Of a DNA stretch of 64,000 nucleotides, positions 45,608 to 64,000 are shown piece after piece. The translations under genes and the position numbers were made by a program. A model generated the notes under the pieces. The model was given only the letters and a program-made list of their open reading frames with translations, was not told where the DNA came from and made no database searches. Source of the DNA: Schmidtea polychroa (Eukaryota); the NCBI GenBank assembly GCA_044892525.1, contig CM097885.1, positions 17,238,001 to 17,302,000 of the forward strand, given 5' to 3'. Every line of letters begins with the position of its first letter. Position 1 is the stretch's first letter.

Positions 45608-48600
45608 TAGGGTGGGTCGAATGTTAATAAATTGTGAGTTCAAGAAAGGAAACATGGTTAAAAAGTTGTATTTTGGTATAGAAAAATCGAATCAAACCAT
45701 TTTACTTAGATTTATGGACATTTACTGCTCCCAACTTTTCTCCGAAAATGCAGTTCAACATAAGTGTGAAAACAATGTAATTTGGCTAGTGTCGGAATGT
45801 GTTTTGCGCCTTTGTCCATATTTAGATGTAGCTTTCTTAAGAGCTTATAAGTATATTATTTACTCTCTTGGGCTGAGATAGTATATTCTGTGTCCTCATC
45901 CCGCATTGAAATATATCCTGACAACGTCAGTGATTAGGAAGGGCCAAATTTGAATTATCCTTTTCAAAGACAAAAATCAACTTTCGAAATTATTTTTTAT
46001 TAAAAACATCCAGCCAAAAGTTTAGAAATGTATTAGCGAGGGCATAAAAAGAAGTCACATGAAATCAGCTTTGCTTTGCACCTTGGGCAATTCCTTCCTT
46101 GAATTTTTACACAGTAGTACCATACCATGTCTGGACTTGTGACCAAACACTTTGCAACTGGCAGAAGAAACATCTTTGATGGCTCTTTCAACGGCTTGAG
46201 AATAACAGGGAAATTGTTCTAATGTAATTTTCTTATTCATCTTCAATTCATGATCCAATATATGAGATAAATGAGGGGGAGGCGTCAAATTACATTTTGT
46301 CCAGTCAATCATGTCAACATATGATGTAGCAGACGACTGAAGAAAGACAGTATTCTTGTCCATAGTGCGAATCACTTCGGAAGGGAGAAAATTTTGTCTT
46401 GCAGTTATGATTTTTTCTGTTGCAAACTTTCTGATTTCTTCATCATCATCACCAACAGCAGCTAGGAGTATATTTTCTGGATGTGAGAAGTAATTGTTGT
46501 TCTGAATGACAGGAAAGATGATTTCTTGGTCTGATGGATCCAAATCCTGCAGAAGTTGGAGCATATAAAAAATATTTCTTGCACCATCTTGGCATGACGA
46601 GTGAGTCTTTATATAAAACCATGACGGTCCATAGAAATTGACAATAAATTTCACTATTCGCATGAGAGGTTCAGATGGAGCAGTTTCGGACATATATAGT
46701 CGCAGAATTCTATTAGCTTTCGTTAGTCAGCGACTGTGATTCAAATTTCCTGGTTGTGCCATTTGTAGAAAAGGGACATCCTTGTTGTTGTGGTACCCTT
46801 TCTGGACTGCCAATCATACTCTGAGGAAATACAATTCATCAGTGTTCAATTCTTTCTTGACATTTTCACTAATATCTACGACCTTTCCAGGAAGGGACAT
46901 AAAGGCTACTACGGGCTTGTCTTTTGGATCAAAATCAAGAACGCTTCCTATTTCACCACATGACGTTTTTGGACCTTTTGTTTCTCCACCATCGACGACT
47001 GAAAAATAGTTCCTGAATGGCAATTCATTTGCATGCAACAAGCATATCAGCCATTGTAGAGGTCGCCCTAGGCTTTTTTCGAGTCTTCTGATTATTCCAT
47101 TATTTTTTCCGGTGTTTGTATTGGTTCCATCGCACACAATTGCTTGTAGGGTCAGTGAGGACTGCGTGCTAACGATGATTGACATGATTTCTTTGCCAAT
47201 ATCCACAGCTTTACTACTTTGAGGTACAACATGATCGATATATGTATCCCCTGGAAAGGCGACAATCACATAATGCTCCTCTTTTAGGATCCTTCTATGA
47301 AGTAAGGTGGAATCTTGTTTCCCGTCAAAACCGAGGCAAATCAAGTTTTTCGCTTCTGCTGAATGCTGTTCAATTTCTCTCTCCCTCCAGTACTTTCTCT
47401 GACGCCGTAATTTTGCGGGATCGATGATTGTTTGAGAGGATAACAGTTCCATATCTTTCAGAAAAGCGTTTACTAGCAAACACGTGTCTCTGTTGCTCAC
47501 ACCACATCTGTCAACAGCTTTACTTAATTCAGGATAATGTCTTCTATTTTGAAATTCATCACATTCTTCTACGCTTGACTCTGAGCTTTCTGTTGAATTG
47601 TCTAACTTATCTTTACTTTCATCACTAGCGGCTTCACTCTCCGTGTCACTTCTTGAGGTCGGATGTAGATCGTTAACTTCAGTGTCCATTATTTCATTTT
47701 TCATTTGTTTTCCTTTTCCTGTAGGGCTGCTTTTCGTTTGTTTTCTCTTCAATTTTGAGGTTTCCTGTCTGTCCGTATTTCCGATTTTCATGTTTCTGGT
47801 AGTTTGTTGGTCAATCCAGAACTCCCACTCTAAGGTAGGAATTTTCAAGGCCAATCGGCATGTACACTGACTTCTTCCACGAGCACCATCATTAAAACAT
47901 TTGCAGCAACATATGTCAAACAATTTGGAAAACGAGCTTAACTTATCTTGAAATTTGGCAGATGACCTCTTGCATTCTGGATACTTCTCTAATTCACGCA
48001 CTTTTGATATTAGTCGCTTGACACGAACCACAATACTACTGAACTCAACAGTTGGGATACTTGCCTTCATATAAATTTCCTTCACCTTATTTGCGAGAAG
48101 AGTTGCTTGTTCGTTAAAGCCAGTATGAAATTGCGTACATTTCTCATTGTAACAGTAATCACGAAACACATCTTCACAAGTAGGTAATTGGTTTCTGGGT
48201 AGTTCACAAGTTTGACCAAACAGACAATGACGTGATTTACTTCTTGTTTTGCGAAATTGTTTATTTCTCTGTCCCTTCATAACTGCTCTTCTGTACTCAG
48301 CTCTGGCAAAATAAAAGTGAATCATCAAGTTAACTTTTTTAATTAGGTCCAGCAAACACTTGACATCCAATCGAAACAAATTAAATTATCTGAGTTTAGA
48401 CTGACTAGTAGTATCCATGTGGATTATGTGTTGACTGTAGTGTGTGTTAGTATTGTTCAGAAGAAATTGTCTTTGTGAGTGCTTGTGTGAAGGTGCTTCC
48501 GTGAATTAACCTCTCTATACATGCACGCGTTAGCTTGGACTTGTGAATAGAGCATGTCAAAAATGGTCTTTCTGCAAGCGTGTGACTGCTTGCAGGATGA

Positions 48601-50169: not shown

Positions 50170-51733
50170 GTTCTCAATACAAATCAATACAATATCAAAG
50201 TCAAATGAATTATTACCATACATAATGACGGTACTATAATGTAGAAAATTTTCAAACATTGAATAATATGAAATCATCTTGGTAATTAAATATATTGGGC
50301 GCAACTACCAAATGTTGATGATATGATGGATGGTTTGGTATTTATAATATCATTTTTAGATTATTCAGAATGAAATATACCCATGAGTTCATCAAAATGG
50401 GAAAAAGATCTTCACAAGAACCATGAAGATACTGGAAAAGCCGAAGAAACCCTAACCAATATTTTAAAGTTGACATTATGTGTTACAGTAGTATTGGTTA
50501 TTATTGTTTCGTAAATGGTTTAATTTGTTTTTATAAATTTATTGTTTTATTTTAATACTTCTTGATTAAAACATATTCATTATTAATTCATTTTGTTTAA
50601 TTTTTTAGATAGTGTTATTTATATATATGGAAATTTACAATTATATATATACAATAATATATTATATACAATTATTATAAATCATAATGATGATTTTCTT
50701 CTGTCCATTGATTCTCCTCTGATATTACTGCCATAATCATCTTCGACAAAATACAAAGATAATATTTCTAGTGACTTTGTTAATCATGCCAAAGTCTTTG
50801 TTAATTATGCACTTGTATTGCAAATTTATTAGTCATACAATTATATTATTTTTTCATGCCCTGACATAATATTATTATTTATTATTATTATGATTATTTT
50901 ATTTAACAATACCATATAGCAAATTTTTAGGCAATTTAGTGAAAAGTACATGGTTATTTTAAATATAGCGATTTCTTAAGTAAACTATTTCCAGATAAAT
51001 TTACCAATTTACTTAGAAATCCATGGTTTTTGGCTGTACCATTTAATTAAAATATTTTAGGATTCATAACAAATATTTTGATGTAGTTGATACTAATACC
51101 AATTATTTCAATTATTTAACTAGAAACATAACAGAATTCTTAGGTAATATAATATTTTTGTGTATTTTTTAGTTAATTTATAAAAAGAATAATATTGTTA
51201 ATTTTATCTCTGTGTTATTAAAATTATCTTTCGACTTTACCCTTCTTACCATTTTAGAATAAGATTTTTATCAAAATTTGTGATAATTTGACTGATTCAA
51301 TTTGATGGAGTTATTATTAATTCGTTTTATTATATATACTCTGAGTTTATCCGACAACATATTTTCTCCCTCTATGGGTACTGCTTGTAAGGGTATTGAT
51401 CGTAAGGGTACTGGTGGGTTTTAATGATTTATTGAGTCAAATATTTGGTTATTATTTGGTATTAAATTCATTGGTAAATTTTTAGAGTTAGCGGGATTTT
51501 ACTAACATTATTACTAACATGTTTTGTGAATAATTGAAAGAATATTTAAAAATTTAAGGTTTTAGTGTTAATTCTAAGACAAATTTAATTAATTTCTTGA
51601 TAATTTGCTATATTTTATTGACTTGTTTTTAATTTTAAATAACAATTATTTTTAATGACAGTTAGGTTAATAATTAGAGTTTTTACAATAATCAATTAAT
51701 CAATTGAAAATATTTTGTCGGATAGACTAGGAG

Positions 51734-53720
<1,987 letters not shown>

Positions 53721-54626
53721 AAATAATAAATCCCATGGGCGCGTCATTGTCTTTGTTCTGAAAATGATAAGTAATTGTATTTGTTCAAAAAATAAATGAG
53801 TCATCCATGAGTACTTTTTTATTACCGTTTGTTTGATATGTATATTATAAGGTTTGAAAAATTTAAACCTTGGATCCTTGGACTCTTTGACCTTCAAACT
53901 TGGACCATCATACTCATCTTTGAATTACCTTTTGTTTGATTTGTATATTATAAGGTTTCTAATTTTTGAACCTTGGGCCCTTCGACCCTTGGACCTTCGT
54001 ACTCACCTTTGAATTACCTTTTATTTGATATGTATATTATGAGGTTTTAAAAAATTTGAACCTTGGACCCTTTCGAGGGTATGACCTTCAAGGGTATGAC
54101 CATCATACTCACCTTTGTATTACCTTTTATTTGACATGTATATATCTACATGTATAATTTTTAAAGGTTTTGGACCCTTTGAAGGTTTGAAGGTTCAGGA
54201 CCATTCATAAACCTTTGAAAGTATGACCATGATACTTACATCTCGACCTTGACCCTAAAAATATGACCTTGACCTTAAAAATATGACATTGACCTTAAAA
54301 ATATGACCTTGACCTTTAAAAATATGACCTTTACCTTAAAAATATGACCTTGACGAGTCATCACATGACCTTGATGAGTCATGGTCTTTGTTTTAATGAC
54401 CTTGACGAGTCAGCCAATGACCTTGATGAGTCATATGTCTTTGTTTAAAATTTGACATTTAAAAAATTTTTCGTTTACCCCCCTCCCTTCGGGGGGTAGT
54501 GTGCCAGTGGTGACATATCCCACTACTTTCTAATCATCTAGTCTAGTGTGATCCTTGGCCTTGCTAGGCTTTGCTTAGCTTTGGGATATCAGGAACGTAT
54601 TTTGAGACTTTATAATTCACACACAG

Positions 54627-54809
<183 letters not shown>

Positions 54810-55051
54810 CCTTTTAATAACTAAATTGTTCACAACAATAAAAACTTTGACTATTTCACAATAAAATAGTCTAAAGAATACTTTACAATAAAAACGTAAA
54901 ATGGAAATGATAAAAGTGAGAACTAAAACAATAATTATATTAAATAAATTTTATTTTAATTCAAAATTCATTCAAGTACATATTGATGTTCCCTTTCATA
55001 TGGAAAGTGTGGGTGACCATAATAATCATCTGGGAAATGTTGATGAACATA

Positions 55052-56273
55052 TCAATTATTATCTTCGTCCGGATCATTAACCTCAGCATTGTTACTATTA
55101 CCCATAACCCTGTTAACTATTTTATAATGACCATAGGCTAAACTTTCATTTTTATTTACCCAATGCCTCTTATCATCATTATTTGTTAGGGCTAAATTTA
55201 TATTTTTTATTGTAAATAACTGATGATTTTTACTTACTATTCGAGATTGTGGTACTGAAATCATTGAATTATTATGATAAAAATCAAGGTACGATTGATG
55301 TTTTAATTCGGTACCCTTCAATGTTATTCCCTTAGCCTTGTTGCTCTCTTTATCACCCAAAAGGCTATAGCATTTAGGCCTTAAGAACACCCATTCCTTA
55401 TATCTACTCCCTTTATTTTCATCTTTGAATTTACCAATGACGGAATCAAAAGCTCTTGAATATAATTCATGAGATGAATCATAATTCGATGTATCCAGCA
55501 TGTTATCTCGTAAAAGCACATCTAATTTGCATCCTTTAACCTCTAAAAATAAGGAATCAGTGTCACCTGCAATAATATTGATTTCGCAGCTAAAATCATC
55601 TCGATATTCGAACTTTCGATCTATGTATGATGTCAACATAATGATGTTTTAATACTTCAGAATTATTTAAAATATCCACTAAAGCATCCTCATCGTATGC
55701 AAGAACATTAATCGAAAGCCCCGGATTTTTATCTTCAAATTTAGTTATATTACAGAAACGCATCGGTAAGTCAGAAGGATCAAAGACTAGATCAGACCGA
55801 TTATAATTACTTATTCGATTTCTATGATTACTATCAACGTCATCGTATTTCAAAATAGCTAAAATGCTATAGATGAAACACAAATCATCCGTATTGTTGA
55901 TATTTATTACGCAATGTTTATTTAATAATGATTTAGGAGTTGGAAGAGAACCCCTCCCACTCAATCTATTTATTTGAGAAAATTTTGTAATAACAAAATG
56001 TATTTCTTTTATTTTATTAATAATCCAATTACTTCCATTTTTATTAATTAAAGTAATTTTCTCATTAAGAATAGCAATACCTTCATCTAAAAAGGTATCA
56101 CTCATGGGTCTTGCAGAATTTGAAATAACGAAAGATTGAAATTCTCCGTCTTTTTCAAATTCCCCTTCGATACAAAATTGAATCTTTACAGAACCCATTT
56201 CTCTGGTAACATTATTAAATTTATTAATTAAGGGCGTGGGTACGGTTAAAGAATTTAAATTTTCAACCATCAA
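55052..56273 (-). pseudogene. Protein-primed DNA polymerase B with a large internal deletion
   Basis: N-terminal VININNTDDLCFIYSILA..KFEDKNPGLSINV joined almost directly to GDTDSLF, LDTSNY, GKFKDE, LRPKCYS, KAKGI, DDKR; exonuclease motifs and polymerase motifs A and B are absent. Confidence 0.9.
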
Positions 56274-56438
56274 AATGATTTGTTAAACAGAATCTAATTG
56301 ATCAACTCGATTTTTAAAATTAATATATATACTGAGTGCATAAAATTATTATATTTAATGATGCAACAATATAAAAGTAATTTTATTATCATTATCTAGT
56401 ATTGCTTAATCATTATTCTAGAAACTTCAGTGAAAAAG

Positions 56439-57129: not shown

Positions 57130-58280
57130 TATTGTGTCCTAATTTGGTTTATAGTTCAAGCTAATCATTTTCAAACTTTATTTACACTAGTACTGTATGA
57201 TTGGATGTAATTTGAATCTCTTTTTCAAAAACTCCATAGACTATTACAGAAATTGATTCAGTTAGAGGTGTTCCAAATTATCCATAATATCAAGTCTTAT
57301 ATTTCCTTGCTGTGGTAATTGACTTTGATTAAGATCAAAGTCAGGAGCCAATACAAATGTAAAGAATAGATACTTTTTTTTAAAGTCAGACATACTAATT
57401 CCACAATTAATATTCTTATTAAGGTAACCATTTTTCTAATTATTGACTGCGTATAACTTGTACTATAATTATCATTTTCAAAATCTTGACTATTTTTCAC
57501 GATAGTCGCTTCCTTTCAATAAAGTTATTGATTTTACATTATTATGGTCGTAAATTGAATAAGAATTTGTTAGTGATCCATTATTTCTTTTATTTCTTTG
57601 AAATGTTACAAGAATAAAATTTGGTAATCGCCGATCACCAAAGATTTGTTCCTTATAAAAAGAAGAAGATCCAGTAGGTAACGAAAATTCAACAACTTCC
57701 TTGCTTCTCAAAGGATAAATTGCATTTCTTGAAGCAAGTCCAATTTGATGACACTAACACCAGGTAATAAATATTTTGGTTGATCCATAAAATCAAATTG
57801 TATTGGTGAACATAATGAAAATGGTTTAGATTTTGCAATCCACGTTTTTCTTATATTATCATCTTCAATGTACTCCATACCTTCTAAATATGTACGTTTT
57901 GTATCATGATTGTAATTTAATATGGTTTCGATTAATGCTTTATGAGCAAATGTATCATTTCCTCCTTCAACTTTAATAGAATTAAAAATTAATTCAGCTT
58001 CTTTAAAAAGAGTTTGGAAAAAGAAATTGTTTGCAGTTACAACAGAATCATCAGAAATATTTTCACCTACATTATTTACAACTTTCAACTGAAGATAAAG
58101 TAAAGTATCATTCAAATCTAAATATTCGGTTTGAGATCCGTTAATGTAAAATTGAATTGAAGAGGTACCAGTATCAGTAATTGAATTCGTCGGATAAATA
58201 TCTTCAAATGAACCATGTTCAATTACTACTTGAGGTCATGGTCTATCAAAAATACATAATTCAGATTTTGCGCTAATCAT
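57130..58280 (-). pseudogene. Polinton major capsid protein (double jelly-roll), frameshifted
   Basis: MISAKSELCIFD.., YLDLNDTLLYLQLKV, NNFFFQTLF, QPKYLLPGV, RLPNFILVTF; position between penton/core genes and protease. Confidence 0.85.
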
Positions 58281-58678
58281 TTTTCGAATATAGTTCCAAA
58301 GACTTTCATTCTTTTGTTTATATGCTTCTTTAAAGTTTTTCTGCGTTTAATCATTCCACCTTTTTGTTCATTCTCTTGTTTATTAAAAACATCAGATACT
58401 TTATTAATTACAGTAGGCAAATGTTGAATTACATCAGCTAGTGATTCTTTAATTTCAGATAAAACATTTGATTTTAAATCAGGTAGAATTTTGGAATTGT
58501 TATTTATTACATAATTGGCAGTTTTCATACCAAAATTCCCTATGCGTCTAAGATTTGGTAAAGCAAATCGACCTATTGTTTTTAACCAACGTGTTCCATA
58601 TTGTTTACCAACAAAATATGGTAAATCTCCACCAGATTGACTATTACTATAAAAGTTTACAATATCATGATTATTCAT
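58277..58678 (-). CDS. Polinton small core/membrane-active protein with QxGG motifs
   Basis: YSNSQSGGDLPYFVGKQYG..WLKTIGRFALP amphipathic segment; EQKGGM and a basic tail; lies just upstream of the MCP. Confidence 0.7.
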   Translation of the reverse strand: MNNHDIVNFYSNSQSGGDLPYFVGKQYGTRWLKTIGRFALPNLRRIGNFGMKTANYVINNNSKILPDLKSNVLSEIKESLADVIQHLPTVINKVSDVFNKQENEQKGGMIKRRKTLKKHINKRMKVFGTIFEK

Positions 58679-59701
58679 TTATTTTACGAAAATGTAGTGT
58701 TAAATGTGTTTTGGTGTCTTTTGAAAATTTAACTTGTTTTCCACTATCGTTGCGAATATTAATTTCAATGTTGTTTATAGATGAAGTTGAAATTGGAAGG
58801 TACATTGGATTCTTTATTTCTAACTGTACTACCTCTCCCTGTTCATATCTTTTAATCCATATCGATTTTAATAGAGGAACTCTTACATCACCAACATTTA
58901 TTGGTTCAATGATATTTGAATAAATAAACATTTGTTGATGAATTTTAAATATTTTTGGAATTTTCACACCAACAAAGTCTTTTTCAATATAAGTTTGATT
59001 CTTTAATCCTAAAGCCTTTGTTAATTTTTGATCAAAGGTGATATTTGAAATATTATCTACAAGTGTTATTTTTACCAATTCTTGATTTTGAAGATTTATT
59101 TCTTTAAATGGAGATGGATTAATTGTCATTAAATACCCTCGCAACTCTGATAAAGTAGTTAAGAATAATTCATCTTCAAAATAATGTTCGAATTTTGTCT
59201 TGATATCGTAATTTATAGTTATTCCAATTTGTTCAATGATATTATTTTCAGTAAATTTAGGTAATTTAATTCGACAATGGTCAGTTTTGCTAATGATTGA
59301 TATGGTTTTTAATTCAAACTTAGATGCATGTTTGGTGTCAAGAAATGATATTTTAAATGGAACATGTGGACAAACTATCACTAAGTTTTCATATCTTTCC
59401 AAGAACACATCAACATCTGGATTGTATGTAGAATTTAAAATTTCTAAGATTTTGTTTTGATTATAGATTTCAAGTATTTAGTTTCTTCGCATGATTTTTT
59501 AAATTCGTATTGTATCCATGAATTACTGTAATACGGAAAATGATTATACACAAATGTAAAATCAATCAAAGCTACTTCCCACTTCCCATTCAAATAAATT
59601 GGGTTTTGAAATTCAACTTTAAAATTACTAGCATTATTATCAGGATAAATAAGAGGACAACTATTACTAGGTAAAATCATATAAAACTGGTTTTCCTTCA
59701 T
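58671..59701 (-). pseudogene. Polinton minor capsid (penton) protein, one frameshift
   Basis: FYMILPSNS..YPDNNASNFKV..L.GKWEVAL at the N-terminus; MFIYSNIIEP..VGD..VPLL..NPMYLP..IEINIRNDSG..LHFRK at the C-terminus. Confidence 0.88.
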
Positions 59702-59706
59702 AATAT

Positions 59707-60823
59707 TTATTTAATCAATTGGTTTTCGGATATCCAGCTAGGATTTTTATAACCATGCCATTTCACATAGTATTGTTTATATTTCCTGTCTGATTTAGTT
59801 TTTAAAATCTCTTGAATTCTGAAGATTGTGGGTGATGGAATGACTTGTAGTTCTTTTTCGTAGAATTTGTCACTGACTTGATCGTTTTCATTATCTGTAA
59901 TAAAGTACATGACCGGATTTCGATTAGTATGTATTTTCGATATTTTAAAAACTTCATCACTCCAATTGTTTTCAAAATTCTTGATGAATGGAGAAGCACT
60001 GATTTTACTTATTCTAACATGGTCTCCAACTTTATATTTCGACGTTTTTTTTGATTTATCTTGTTGTGATATCCAAGTATCAATATTATTTGTTGAATAA
60101 ATATCGATTGGTTTCATTCCATTTATTCCTCTATGAGGTGAAAAATTGTAACTGTAAATTATTTTCGACAATACATTTATCCACGTTTTATCGACTTGAT
60201 ATTCAAAATATTTTTTCAAACGATCTCTTAAAGTACGATTGAATCTTTCCACGTGTGCTGCTTTATATTGTGAAAATACTGAGTAATGATTTATTCCTTT
60301 GACAATTTCTTTAACTTTGCTATTATAAAATTCTACCTAAATTTAAAATTAATTAAAATTATTTAATTTATAATTTTACCCAAATCTGTTTGTAAATTAC
60401 GAGGCTGTCCGTCAGCAAATAATGTTTTTAATGAATCAGCCATTTCATTAGCTGATTTAGATTTTGTCGGGATAGCACGAGCGTATCTACTAAATACATC
60501 AATACATGTCAAAATATATTTGTATCCTTTATTAATTTTTGAAAATGGAATCATTTCCATTAAATACATTTGCCATAAATCATTAACACCAAATGTTTTA
60601 TAAGATCTCGTGGGGAATCTTTTTAACATTGGTTTATTTAGACTGTAGGCTAATTGATTAGATAACCATTTTTGAGTTTCTTTCTTTGATTTATTTACTC
60701 TTTTTGCAAGTTTTTCTACACCACCAAAACCATCTGGATCTTTCAGGTTTGTCCAAATCGTTTCGAGTTTTTCTCTAATATTTTCTTCTTTGATTTGACC
60801 TTTTTGAAAAATGTTTCCTTCAT
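59707..60823 (-). pseudogene. Polinton retroviral-like integrase with C-terminal chromodomain-like tail and a 43-nt intron (60379-60337)
   Basis: P..FGGVEKL, WQM(D>Y)L, ILTCIDVFSRYA, LQTDLG|EFYN, KAAHVERFNRTL, YYVKWHGY..SWI; frameshifts. Confidence 0.9.
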
Positions 60824-60914
60824 TATTACAACATGATGTTAATATATTTAAATCTAAATTATGTTTATCCGGTAATGAATCCTTAGCAGCAATTATTTCT
60901 ATGATATTATATTT

Positions 60915-61240
60915 TTAAGAATTTAATGACGAAATAGTGCTTATAGCCGATAATACAATTGGAATTAATGTACCTAAAATCCGCCTTGTTGTTTATATAT
61001 TATTTTTCTCATTAGATTTCTATTTTTGGTGTTAACTAATGATAAAAGAGATTTCTTATGTCTTTTTAATACAACCTTTTAGCTTTACTAATATTTACAT
61101 TTCCATGAACTATGTTAACAATAGCTTCAAGTAAATCATCAATAACAAATGATGGAAAAGCTTGTAATATACTCGTCCTTTTATTATTTGGAGCATTTAG
61201 CAAGGCGTTAAAATATGGTAAGCTACGTTGTAATTTCATT
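60915..61240 (-). pseudogene. Polinton small basic core protein with a QQGG motif
   Basis: MKLQRSLPYFNALL..LLEAIVNIVHGNV..LKRHKKSL..YKQQGG followed by a hydrophobic LIPIVLSAI segment; frameshifted. Confidence 0.6.
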
Positions 61241-61270
61241 GCCAATGATGTATTTTATTAATTAATTTGT

Positions 61271-61408
61271 TTATAATTTAATCCAACTCTTCCTTTTCAT
61301 TGATTTTTTAGTCATATTTGTAGTTTTTTCTTTCCGTTTAGTATTTCTTTTGTTTTCTTTCTGCTTTGTAACTTTTTCACGTTGAACTATAACTTTTTTA
61401 AATGACAT
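61271..61408 (-). CDS. Very basic 45-aa peptide, putative DNA-binding core protein
   Basis: MSFKKVIVQREKVTKQKENKRNTKRKEKTTNMTKKSMKRKSWIKL, directly downstream of the ATPase. Confidence 0.45.
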   Translation of the reverse strand: MSFKKVIVQREKVTKQKENKRNTKRKEKTTNMTKKSMKRKSWIKL

Positions 61409-61429
61409 TTTTAAATAATAATAATAATG

Positions 61430-62059
61430 TATTTCATTTTTGTTTATAAATCGTAACACCTTTATCATTGAAAATATCTGTTCTAACACGTAAATCATCT
61501 GGACATTGTTAAGTAAAGTCGAAAAATAAATACCCATGTACTATCTTTGTTGCATCTTGAAAGGATTCAATTAAATTCTATCATCTTCTATCATTAGGAT
61601 AAGCCTGTCTTGCGAGAAAATCAATTATAGTTGCGTCTCGAGGATTTTTGAAAATAACTAAATATTGTACATTCAAATTACGCGTTCGATGACTTCCGCC
61701 TTGATGAAATAAATTTTGTGTTATAAAAATTACCGTTACTCCGATATGTCTACTGATTTTTGTAAATAAATTATTAAAATCTTTCTCTTTATTTGCTTCC
61801 TGATATAAATCATCAATAATTATAGCATCACCTTGTTGTAATCTAGATGACCAATTTTTTTCAAATCCCTTCATTATATTCATTTTTAATTTACAAAACT
61901 GATCTTGTGTCATACAATGCTCGTCATCAGCTCCCTTATGCCAGTATATTTTATTAAATTTTGATTTGAACATATTCGATTGTAATAATTTACAAACAAA
62001 TAAAGTTTTTCCACTACCAGTAGGACAATTTGATAAACGGCATCATTTCTTAATTCCAT
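61430..62059 (-). pseudogene. A32/FtsK-like genome packaging ATPase
   Basis: Walker A PTGSGKT (frameshifted just upstream), Walker B IIIDDL, ITQNLF, RTRNLNVQYLVIFKNPRD; premature stops. Confidence 0.92.
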
Positions 62060-62148
62060 CTTAATTAATCTAATTTCATTAATATTATTGTTTATATTTG
62101 TTTAAATTTAATATTATAAGTATATAAAAATTATTTAAATTTTATTAC

Positions 62149-62595
62149 ATGACTTCATTATTATTGAGCAACATTAATTATAAAGATAAGTGTTTAGTCA
62201 AAAACATGAAATTCCCATTAGGTAAACCCCAACAAGTTGTGGATAGAAGTGGGATGTATCCAATTATATTTTTCAAGTTGGGTAGATGTCGGATAATGGG
62301 ATGCAAGCAACCTCTTAAATTAGTTGATTTGAAATATAAGATACAAGATTTACAAATTCAGTCCATTACAGTAACTGCTGATATCGAAAAATTTATAAAT
62401 TTATACGAATTACAACATAAAACTAAATGTGTGTTTGATCCAGAAATATTTCCCGCCTTACGTCTTCAAAAATATAATCCAGTTTGTGTTAATGTATTTT
62501 CAAGCGGGAAGGTTTTATTACATAGAATAAAAACTTTAGAATATAATCACTATGTAGAGAACATTATCTCAGAAATTAAAATGTTAATTAATTAA
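62149..62595 (+). CDS. TATA-binding-protein-like protein (148 aa, intronless) encoded inside Polinton B
   Basis: IQSITVTADIEKFINLYEL..FDPEIFPALRLQKYNPVCVNVFSSGKVLL matches TBP repeat 2 (IQNIV.S.D..FPI.LE.L..YEPELFPGL.YR...P....LIF.SGKVV); degenerate repeat 1 IFFKLGRCRIMGCK. Confidence 0.8.
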   Translation: MTSLLLSNINYKDKCLVKNMKFPLGKPQQVVDRSGMYPIIFFKLGRCRIMGCKQPLKLVDLKYKIQDLQIQSITVTADIEKFINLYELQHKTKCVFDPEIFPALRLQKYNPVCVNVFSSGKVLLHRIKTLEYNHYVENIISEIKMLIN

Positions 62596-62637
62596 TTAAT
62601 TTTGTTTGTATTGATTTTGTTTTTAGTAATAAGAAAA

Positions 62638-63024
62638 ATGTCAAAAGGTAAAGAATATATTTTTATTTATAATTAATAATCTTTATATCTAGTTTACTTA
62701 TTTGAAGTAATTTTAAAGAAGTTTCAAGAATTATACCCAGGAATAAGAAATACCATAGATTATTGTGCACCAGAGTTACTTATAAATAAAATATTTCGCT
62801 TAACAGGTATTAATATAGAACAACTTTTAGAGTTGCACTACGTTATGGTTCTGAGGTCTGACACTAGATGCATTGAAAATTGTATTGTTTGCAAAGATTC
62901 TATGAGATTGTCATGCCCCAATGGGTGTCCATGCTGTCACGACTTTAAAAGGGATCAATCAGTTCATATCTTATTAGCTGAAATGCGTAAAGCATACTAC
63001 ACAGATGTATTTAACTTGAAATAA
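62638..63024 (+). CDS. Two-exon Cys-rich accessory protein (62638-62647, 62693-63024; 113 aa)
   Basis: A 45-nt GT-AG phase-1 intron gives the open frame MSKVYLFEVILKKFQELYPG...CIENCIVCKDSMRLSCPNGCPCCH...FNLK*. Confidence 0.6.
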
Positions 63025-63049
63025 AATGTTTTATATAATTTTTAAATTT

Positions 63050-63657
63050 TTAATATTATCTGTGTGTGAATTATAACCGAGTGGTTATCACATTCATTGT
63101 CATCATTATAGTACTCGGGTTCAAATATATGTATGTATGACGTTTCTTATATAATTATAATACAATAAATATATATCTATAATAAAATTATAGAATTATG
63201 TAACACCATACCACCCCCTGGGTACCCATACAAATATTACGTAATAATATATATCCTGAGATATTTGGTTTGGTTTATACTCCTCACTTGTCACTACTCT
63301 ATCAAAATGTATAGAGTTTTTCCTGAGATATTTGGCTTGGTTTATACTCCTCACTACTCTAATAAAGTATAATTATTATGTAAGAGGTCAAAGGTCAATT
63401 ATTATATAAGGGATCAAAGGTCAATTAGTATGCAAGAGGTCAATGGACAATTATTGCACAATGGGGTCAGATAGGACATGAAATTAAAAAATCAAATGTT
63501 ACGTAAACAACACATCATTACATCGCCTTATATACGATTACGTAATTTTACAGAATTATGTAACACCATACAACCCCAGAGTACCCAATCAAATATTACG
63601 CAATACTGTATATCCTGGGATATTGGAATTGGTTTATACTCCTCACTTGTCACTACT
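63050..63657. repeat. Right TIR of Polinton B with three terminus-like copies
   Basis: GGTTTATACTCCTCAC(TTGTCAC)TACT ends at about 63298, 63358 and 63657; AGGTCAA repeats at 63380-63445. Confidence 0.85.
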
Positions 63658-64000
63658 AATGAAATTTTTCAGATGTTTGAAGTAACGAAGATTCCGTATT
63701 TTAATATCCTCAGTATAGATTTTGATTTTGGAAACAAATGCTTTCCATATCTCATAAAGCTCCATAACCGTTTGTCCAACACCTTGCAGATGTAAATTAA
63801 ACTCGCCGAGGTGAGCTATAAAACATAAGTTTTATAAGCCACTGTGTGTCTTCAAGTTCGGAATATCTTCCAGATTTTTCTTCCAAAAAGACTTTGATTG
63901 AGTCGAAGCATCCAACAAACCTTTCCAGAACTTTACCGCAACTTAGCCATCCAACGTTGCGGTGAAGAGGTATGTGCTGATATGCACTCTCCATCTCTTG

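Follow-up and report, generated by a model that had tools for sequence, protein, structure and literature searches.

A conserved TATA-binding-protein-like gene in a Maverick/Polinton lineage and an oriented promoter-like motif before the core genes of the lineage

Described TBP-like proteins and the present gene

In crystal structures of TATA-binding protein (TBP) bound to DNA, the C-terminal repeat sits on the 5' half of the TATA box and the N-terminal repeat on its 3' half, and the C-terminal stirrup (E-P-E-L) is the contact for TFIIB. Giant viruses (Nucleocytoviricota) encode TBP homologues of their own, which serve viruses equipped with their own RNA polymerase. The late-gene TBP-like proteins of herpesviruses (BcRF1/UL87/ORF24) read a TATT box. 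For mid-size dsDNA viruses with an adintovirus-like PolB, our source for a TBP-like gene is the legend of Fig. 5 in Starrett et al. 2021 (PMC8502044), which lists ‘TBP’ in the map of a related virus (adintoviruses / MELD viruses). The text consulted there describes no conservation, architecture or promoter link for the box, and one of its supplementary files contains neither TBP nor TATA. Besides this legend, a full-text literature search returned no discussion of a Polinton TBP; two candidate papers were set aside on the extracts returned, PMC10675990 as concerning a mirusvirus-like element and PMC12220804 as an author-name match only. Because of the Starrett legend, a TBP-like gene in the adintovirus/Polinton group is not wholly new. 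An earlier note on this DNA knew of no described Polinton TBP, a claim that the legend softens. We found no earlier description of the gene's conservation across the Maverick lineage, of the trimmed architecture of its product or of the promoter dichotomy reported below.

The gene studied here is an open reading frame (ORF) of 148 codons, ATG to stop, near the right end of the window, the whole stretch of 64,000 nucleotides that was analysed (Table 1). Judged by its sequence, the family protein is a minimal TBP of 145–170 residues, compared with about 180 for the cellular core. It shares with cellular TBP and TBP-related factors (PF00352) the homology of a canonical C-terminal repeat, with both intercalating phenylalanines and an EPE(L/I)FP stirrup conserved, and a predicted ten-stranded saddle over the full core. 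Unlike them, it has an N-terminal repeat that lacks helices and goes undetected by Pfam, an invariant Ser in place of the strand-1 Asn of the second repeat, and a gene that is multicopy on a mobile element. Giant-virus TBPs are likewise virus-encoded proteins of the TBP fold, but those among our matches are longer (189–500 aa). The likeness to herpesvirus BcRF1/UL87/ORF24 would lie in the proposed logic, that is, a viral TBP mimic, a variant TATA word found only in late promoters and recruited host RNA polymerase II (Pol II). It is an analogy and not a relationship: UL87/BcRF1 are proteins of 550–730 aa that appear at Foldseek ranks 28–29 as remote matches (E = 1.6e-3 to 2e-3, TMq 0.40).

Table 1. 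Positions of genes, motifs and terminal regions of the element in the window
Feature	Position	Strand	Description
TBP-like gene	62149..62595	+	148 aa plus stop; canonical C-terminal TBP repeat, shortened helix-less N-terminal repeat (predicted)
Canonical TATA box TATATAAAAA	62121..62130	+	begins 28 nt upstream of the TBP-like ATG
Divergent spacer between ATPase and TBP-like gene	62060..62148		89 bp
ATAAACAA promoter-like motif	62088..62095	-	36 nt upstream of the ATPase ATG
A32-like packaging ATPase	61437..62059	-	broken; first ~19 codons in another frame than the remainder; Pox_A32 22.1 bits
Small conserved gene	60918..61239	-	three frames here; its length is 108 aa in sister copies and 175 aa in other subfamilies; ATAAACAA at 61267-61274
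rve integrase with C-terminal chromodomain	59710..60914	-	split into two ORFs; ATAAACAA at 60989-60996
Penton-like gene	58674..59701	-	two frames; ATAAACAA at 59773-59780
133-aa conserved gene	58280..58678	-	intact in the window copy; ATAAACAA at 58771-58778, 100 nt upstream
Major capsid gene (double jelly-roll match weak)	57185..58280	-	at least three frames; ATAAACAA at 58314-58321 and 58376-58383
Protein-primed family B DNA polymerase (polB) remnants	55055..56282	-	large internal deletions; DNA_pol_B E 0.033, DTDS motif
Cys-rich gene following the TBP-like gene	62639..63021	+	33% identity to a 122-aa ORF of another subfamily; probably with a short GT..AG intron at ~62649-62691
Right terminal region	63031..63658		inner edge inverted at 54610-54657
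Left terminal-repeat remnant with (TAA)n microsatellite	54610..54864		inverted relative to the right-end region of sister copies

Homology, predicted fold and element linkage of the TBP-like gene

By sequence profile and predicted structure, the ORF encodes a genuine TBP homologue. Pfam TBP (PF00352) matched residues 68–129, one repeat only (E = 3.9e-10; 39.9 bits, curated cut-off 22.9), and a profile of 21 family members matched solved TBPs in the C-terminal repeat only (E = 3.4e-20). Pfam and the PDB profile thus both detected the second repeat alone (residues about 62–151), and the tandem repeats were not both detectable by sequence. Alignment of the N-half against the C-half with hhalign gave a weak similarity (E = 0.0015, probability 6.7%), and we read the N-half as a repeat mainly because of the predicted structure. 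These results agree with the earlier note, which had described a C-terminal half that follows the TBP repeat and a degenerate N-terminal one.

An AlphaFold2 (AF2) model built from the 21-member alignment (mean pLDDT 94, pTM 0.83) has, in its C-terminal half, the canonical succession of strand, helix, four strands and long helix, and in its N-terminal half four strands and no helices. In this model the protein is a full TBP saddle minus the two helices of the first repeat. All 44 Foldseek matches in the PDB with E ≤ 0.001 were TBPs. Alignment with human TBP residues 160–337 by VIA-align covered 148 of 148 residues (Z = 13.4, rmsd 2.5 Å), and the first 38 entries of the VIA-align ranking were TBP, the next entry having Z = 7.0. 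In a viral structure library, the best matches were giant-virus TBPs (E = 2e-8, TMq 0.72).

The 21 sequences are identical in sixteen alignment columns, including the P-E-x-F-P stirrup, C-V-N-x-F and G-K. The C-terminal phenylalanines F101 and F117 are invariant and align with the DNA-kinking phenylalanines of TBP; in the N-half, F42 is nearly invariant, but its partner could not be placed. The invariant Ser of the family stands where strand 1 of the second TBP repeat has Asn (IQN in the host gene), and the first repeat of the family retains N-I-N.

The surrounding genes are those of a Maverick/Polinton element. In an open sister copy (L031), Pox_A32 scored 30.3 bits (cut-off 22.8) and Peptidase_C5, an adenain-like cysteine protease, 27.4 bits (cut-off 21.3); the protease fragment in the window was without a Pfam match. 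The rve integrase model gave E = 5.6e-7 and a score of 30.2 bits, under the cut-off of 32.6, and the chromodomain match was weak. The major capsid gene gave a weak DJR-like_dom match (E = 0.04), and the nearest Atlas clusters have PF21738 in 15–24% of their members; the long polB-like ORFs of sister copies had no Pfam match at E 0.01. The gene order in the fetched copies is the TBP-like gene and then, in the opposite direction, the ATPase, a 108–177-aa gene, the integrase, the penton gene, a 120–133-aa gene, the major capsid gene, the protease and polB. None of the element parts examined encodes an RNA polymerase subunit, and use of host Pol II would therefore be required.

Within the window, 57742–63052 is 96% identical to other copies, with weaker homology continuing to about 63658, and an inverted match between 54610–54657 and 63031–63076 (85%, 48 nt) shows where the terminal repeat has its inner edge; the outer left terminal-repeat arm was not found in the window. 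This homology to sister copies and the inverted terminal match together place the ORF within the element, with the ATPase on one side and the right end on the other, as the earlier note had it. The divergent spacer follows from the ATPase start codon at 62057–62059 (reverse strand). Our coordinates for the ORF, the spacer and the TATA box about 28 nt before the ATG coincide with those first reported.

A search of the 781 Mb host genome with the TBP-like protein gave 4,088 first-look candidates, of which at least 150 were scored. All 150 of the scored matches exceed the Pfam TBP cut-off, and 16 contain stop codons, in a list that favours intact copies because it is ranked by score. They include subfamilies at about 90–93%, 63% and 58% identity, to which a Pfam search adds others of 154–170 aa. 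We fetched 21 copies from at least five subfamilies. All 21 carry core-gene matches, and in 19 the TBP-like gene is flanked by a divergently oriented ATPase ORF of 100 aa or more, the other two being broken there. The host has a canonical intron-bearing TBP gene and several two-repeat paralogues, to which the element protein is 23–31% identical over one repeat; this distance and the differing architecture rule out a retrocopy of host TBP. The TBP-like gene is a conserved gene of this Maverick/Polinton lineage, and its association with the flanking genes, which the earlier note had read from a single copy, holds in the copies fetched. The host TFIIB gene (L097) is interrupted by an intron, and the top match to PF00382 is BRF1-like.

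Relatives also occur outside this genome. A collection of 5.8 billion proteins held 23, and a library of 1.84 billion representatives held 283 clusters at E ≤ 0.001, 82 of them at E ≤ 1e-10. Among 54 metagenome contigs that encode a relative, 23 carry further Polinton genes (tblastn with the proteins of one sister copy) in three gene orders. The remaining 31 gave no further Polinton match; 29 of these are shorter than 3.2 kb, and the other two, L051 and L058, measure about 5.2 kb. On metagenome contigs, the TBP-like gene may share a strand with the ATPase and precede it, follow the protease or a penton gene, or be divergent from the ATPase, and this varied position indicates that it travelled with the lineage through rearrangements. 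In many relatives its neighbour is an OB-fold gene whose product resembles T7 gp2.5-type single-stranded-DNA-binding proteins, a weak match (Z = 7.1). Among IMG/VR viral contigs we found no relative of the TBP-like protein (27 pattern matches, none confirmed) or of the ATPase (592 pattern matches, none confirmed).

Selection on the gene family was assessed by dN/dS (Nei–Gojobori). Between subfamilies the ratio was 0.06–0.32 where dS was computable and unsaturated; one unsaturated pair, L031 and L030, had dS 0.126 and dN 0.032 (ratio 0.26). The range found between lineages shows that the TBP-like gene family is under purifying selection.

The copy in the window looks different. Compared with the protein common to seven sister loci, it is 93% identical, with 4.5 synonymous and 11.5 non-synonymous differences (ratio about 0.6), and it differs from the family at positions 97 and 126, both of them nearly invariant in the alignment. 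The earlier note had stressed that the ORF is intact while the rest of the element is broken. The second half of this statement stands in that the ATPase, the 108-aa gene, the penton gene and the major capsid gene each occupy at least two frames, the integrase is in two pieces and large parts of polB are deleted, but the 133-aa ORF at 58280–58678 is likewise intact, as probably is the Cys-rich gene at 62639–63021, so openness is not special to the TBP-like gene. Neighbouring genes have an estimated one frame break per 500–650 nt, at which rate a frame of 447 nt has a fair chance of remaining open. Given the dN/dS of about 0.6, the changed conserved positions and the other open short frame, the argument that selection has kept this copy intact is not supported. 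The contrast between an intact ORF and broken neighbours is best read as chance in a short gene, and by these sequence comparisons the window copy is probably decaying. For this copy alone, we consider it very probable that the gene is dead and its short frame open by chance. That reading is compatible with the explanation of the gene family that we prefer below. A look-up of RNA data for 61000–63100 listed none. Contigs from four sequencing runs were compared with the window, two of them possibly RNA (X1, X2) and two others (X3, X6); X1 overlaps the ORF only at 62155–62220 and X2 nowhere, and, being contigs, they are uninformative on expression.

Two promoter classes in the element

Inspection of the upstream regions of sister copies revealed a recurring word, TATAAACAA. 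To place it relative to genes, we located gene starts by tblastn in 75 fetched loci (L021–L095) and scored sense-strand occurrences of the ATAAACAA core up to 150 nt before the ATG. The core precedes 28 of 35 ATPase starts, 16 of 16 starts of the 175-aa gene, 23 of 29 integrase starts, 18 of 23 penton starts, 20 of 23 starts of the 122-aa gene and 21 of 24 major capsid starts, that is, 126 of 150 for the six core genes combined. Before the TBP-like gene it was absent (0/69), as it was before the protease starts as called (0/15), and it precedes 4 of 28 starts of the downstream 136-aa gene. Many genome copies are closely related and hence are non-independent observations; counting distinct upstream sequences only, ATAAACAA was present in 88 of 111 regions of the six core genes versus 0 of 61 of the TBP-like gene. 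In metagenome loci, the exact 8-mer occurred at 24 of 42 distinct core-gene starts and its 7-mer core at 39 of 42, compared with 0 and 2 of 43, respectively, at starts of TBP-like genes. The exact 8-mer was missing from three related core-gene contigs (L065, L077 and L079). Some 35 nt before the ATPase, the motif is found even in a distant lineage whose ATPase is 35% identical.

Distances from motif to ATG are tight and gene-specific, with modes of 32–35, 32, 65, 19, 100 and 41 nt (span 19–100 nt), and within gene modules (145 kb) 181 motifs are in sense and one in antisense orientation. Dinucleotide shuffling of L056 gave an expectation of 2.17 against 14 observed, a number reached in 0 of 200 shuffles; for L031, 8 were observed against 2.33 expected (1 of 200). 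Eight of the 24 ATAAACAA matches in the window fall within 58314–62095, all on the gene strand. Part of the conservation of the motif may reflect coding constraint, because some of its copies fall inside the coding sequence of the upstream gene. We rejected the possibility that the motif is a poly(A) signal of the upstream gene: it precedes the ATPase, where no co-oriented gene lies upstream, and several copies lie 41–100 nt ahead of the upstream gene's stop codon.

The TBP-like gene belongs to another class. Of its 61 distinct upstream regions, 30 contain TATAWAWR, accompanied in 8 cases by a CCAAT box no more than 50 nt away; for the 136-aa gene, TATAWAWR occurs in 8 of 24 upstream regions, with a CCAAT box in 7 of these. 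The upstream regions of polB show neither motif class clearly and may lie behind an intron. The genome also contains a Polinton-like element from a different lineage (9.4 kb, n = 1), in which there was no TBP-like match and a single ATAAACAA, inside an ORF; the genes of that one element show a different short word near the ATG.

Because of its near-absolute orientation and fixed spacing, features that do not by themselves indicate the protein that reads it, we favour interpreting the oriented motif as a putative core-promoter element rather than an enhancer site. TATAAACAA nearly matches the ordinary TATA consensus, and therefore host TBP may read it.

Proposed role of the protein and alternatives

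We propose that the element encodes a minimal TBP that, expressed by the host, would bind TATAAACAA before the ATPase, integrase and virion genes and nucleate host Pol II initiation there, a proposal to which we give roughly even chances. The TBP-like gene would be transcribed by host factors from its ordinary TATA box, sometimes aided by a CCAAT box, as would the neighbouring OB-fold gene in many lineages. The protein would then bind the variant TATA-like TATAAACAA, in sense orientation shortly upstream of the ATPase, integrase, penton and major capsid genes and of two small genes, and initiation by host Pol II at these sites would give the element an early-to-late programme of its own. DNA binding, the identity of the protein that reads the motif, recruitment of TFIIB and the timing are parts of this scheme that we infer. 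The earlier note had suggested that this lineage encodes its own basal transcription factor. The TBP fold, the membership of the gene in the element, the purifying selection and a core-gene promoter motif as candidate target all accord with that suggestion, and the role as a factor is a reasonable reading of them.

Known structures make this proposal attractive. If the orientation seen in TBP–DNA crystals applies here, the divergent N-terminal repeat would pair with the unusual AACAA half of the motif and the canonical repeat with the canonical TATA half, with the stirrup kept. A more specific version is a virus-style cascade on host Pol II: a TBP of 150 residues and ‘one and a half repeats’, made from an ordinary TATA promoter, would use its remodelled N-terminal half to read TATAAACAA as a private core-promoter word and would turn on the genes of packaging, integration and the capsid. 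We hold this version tentatively and doubt it somewhat more than we believe it. If it is true, no smaller TBP would be known and no earlier factor of promoter selectivity from a Polinton, and the protein would provide an independent parallel to the TBP mimic of herpesvirus late genes.

The trimmed saddle could also serve to obstruct. A mini-TBP might sit on TATA boxes, or sequester TFIIB, BRF or further partners of TBP, without forming a productive complex; it would then damp host or element transcription, for example in the control of latency. The surface that is missing here binds TFIIA, NC2 and Mot1 in cellular TBP. The model lacks both N-terminal helices and retains the DNA-facing sheet and the C-terminal stirrup, and the loss of helices would remove docking sites for TFIIA and regulators. 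Conservation of the stirrup, however, suits productive use equally well as titration, and a decoy leaves unexplained why six core genes have a dedicated, oriented motif that is absent from the TBP-like gene's own promoter; we regard this explanation as unlikely. A division of labour in which host factors read TATAAACAA, be they forkhead proteins or ordinary TBP, would leave the mini-TBP a general role without promoter preference, such as replacing limiting TBP where the element is active. TGTATAAACAAAT is a tested Biniou/FoxF forkhead site (PMC1891290), TATAAACAA is also an exact forkhead site, and TATAAACA is one position off TATAWAWR. Yet a sense orientation of 181:1 and closely kept distances to the ATG are what core-promoter elements, rather than enhancer sites, typically show, and the single TBP-less Polinton-like element examined (n = 1) is without the upstream motif, which makes host readers of this kind rather improbable in our view.

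Outside transcription, the protein might bend DNA at AT-rich terminal repeats and so aid protein-primed replication or packaging. In the host genome its gene adjoins the terminal repeat and the packaging ATPase, and the OB-fold partner of many relatives, with its T7 gp2.5-type resemblance (Z = 7.1, a weak lead), would fit such a task. Against this, the gene has no fixed place in relatives, where it may precede the ATPase or follow either the protease or the penton gene, and the residues retained are those of the stirrup that faces TFIIB in cellular TBP. We think a role of this kind very unlikely. The preferred reading, a minimal TBP that would direct host Pol II to the element's core genes, concerns the gene family as a whole.

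To our knowledge, how Maverick/Polinton genes are expressed from within animal chromosomes is essentially unknown. An element-encoded TBP together with an oriented word on six core genes makes Maverick expression directly testable, with one small protein and one 9-nt word. The protein is also a natural experiment in trimming the TBP saddle, in which a whole helix layer is predicted to be gone. Should the word prove private to the element, it may help to distinguish active copies from silent ones where a genome contains thousands.

Genes beside the TBP-like gene and the starts of polB

The usual neighbour of the TBP-like gene, on either strand, is a conserved gene of 100-146 aa, with the copy in L031 (a sister copy) having relatives in 27 other loci. 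Its promoter is of the TATA (+CCAAT) type, as is that of the TBP-like gene. We obtained an AlphaFold2 (AF2) model of the protein with a pLDDT of 90.5, which showed weak likeness (VIA Z of 7.1-6.8 and a best Foldseek E of 0.048) to single-stranded-DNA-binding proteins with an OB fold, of the T7 gp2.5, phage Enc34 and ASFV CP312R type. The gene product is possibly the element's SSB.

In the window's subfamily and one other, the position downstream of the TBP-like gene is taken by a Cys-rich gene of ~120 aa rather than the OB-fold gene, and this Cys-rich gene has no Pfam match. A GT..AG intron of ~43 nt seems to separate its first four codons from the remainder in the window's subfamily. Upstream of the polB ORFs in four subfamilies (L022, L027, L035 and L038), we found neither promoter class, that is, neither the TATA-like word shared by the six core genes nor the canonical TATA; a conserved TTGTAATTC word precedes these ORFs, together with an AT-rich tract ending in AG, and polB may start in an upstream exon.

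Features in the window, in fetched loci (L-numbers) and in C1-C3 of the host genome
Feature	Position	Strand	Remark
100-146-aa neighbour gene	L031:8750-9160	+	
Relatives, examples	L047:1788-2138; L042:1699-2064		
Cys-rich gene	window 62639-63021	+	
Cys-rich gene, other subfamily	L035:7811-8179		
polB starts with upstream TTGTAATTC word	L022:8586; L027:9162; L035:700; L038:8561		
ORF pair	window 46055-48325	-	upstream of element
Same ORF pair	L034:3957-6226	-	within another Maverick copy
L099	C2:101941400-101950800		second Polinton-like lineage
TFIIB-like ORF clusters	C3:38.21-38.37 Mb; C1:23.85-24.19 Mb		spacing ~7.9 kb for some

Other elements and repeats

The pair of ORFs of ~500 aa and 210-280 aa, the first beginning MIHFYFARAEYRR, is probably part of a different transposon, one that inserts into Mavericks. 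Long stretches of (TAA)n/(ATT)n microsatellite border the terminal-repeat regions of the window element (51700-54800) and invade them, and sister copies carry the same microsatellite in their terminal region (L021:8489-8606).

The L099 lineage is unrelated to the TBP-carrying Maverick lineage. It encodes an A32 ATPase of 223 aa, an integrase (32% identical) and a protease, with a CATTTTA-like word recurring 15-20 nt upstream of its start codons; no TBP-like gene is present within the L099 interval. An LTR-retrotransposon-like gag/protease ORF adjoins the element.

TFIIB-like genes and abundance of the Maverick lineage

The host genome has at least 12 ORFs, 301-310 aa long and without introns, that match Pfam TFIIB (38-44 bits) and lie in clusters. 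TFIIB-like genes are expanded here in a genome also flooded with TBP-like genes.

First-look candidate counts across the 781-Mb genome (4,088 for the TBP-like protein, 2,998 for Pfam TBP and 2,605 for Pfam Pox_A32) suggest that it holds thousands of copies of the TBP-carrying Maverick lineage. Identical TBP-like proteins occur within several sets of copies, suggesting that the lineage was amplified recently.
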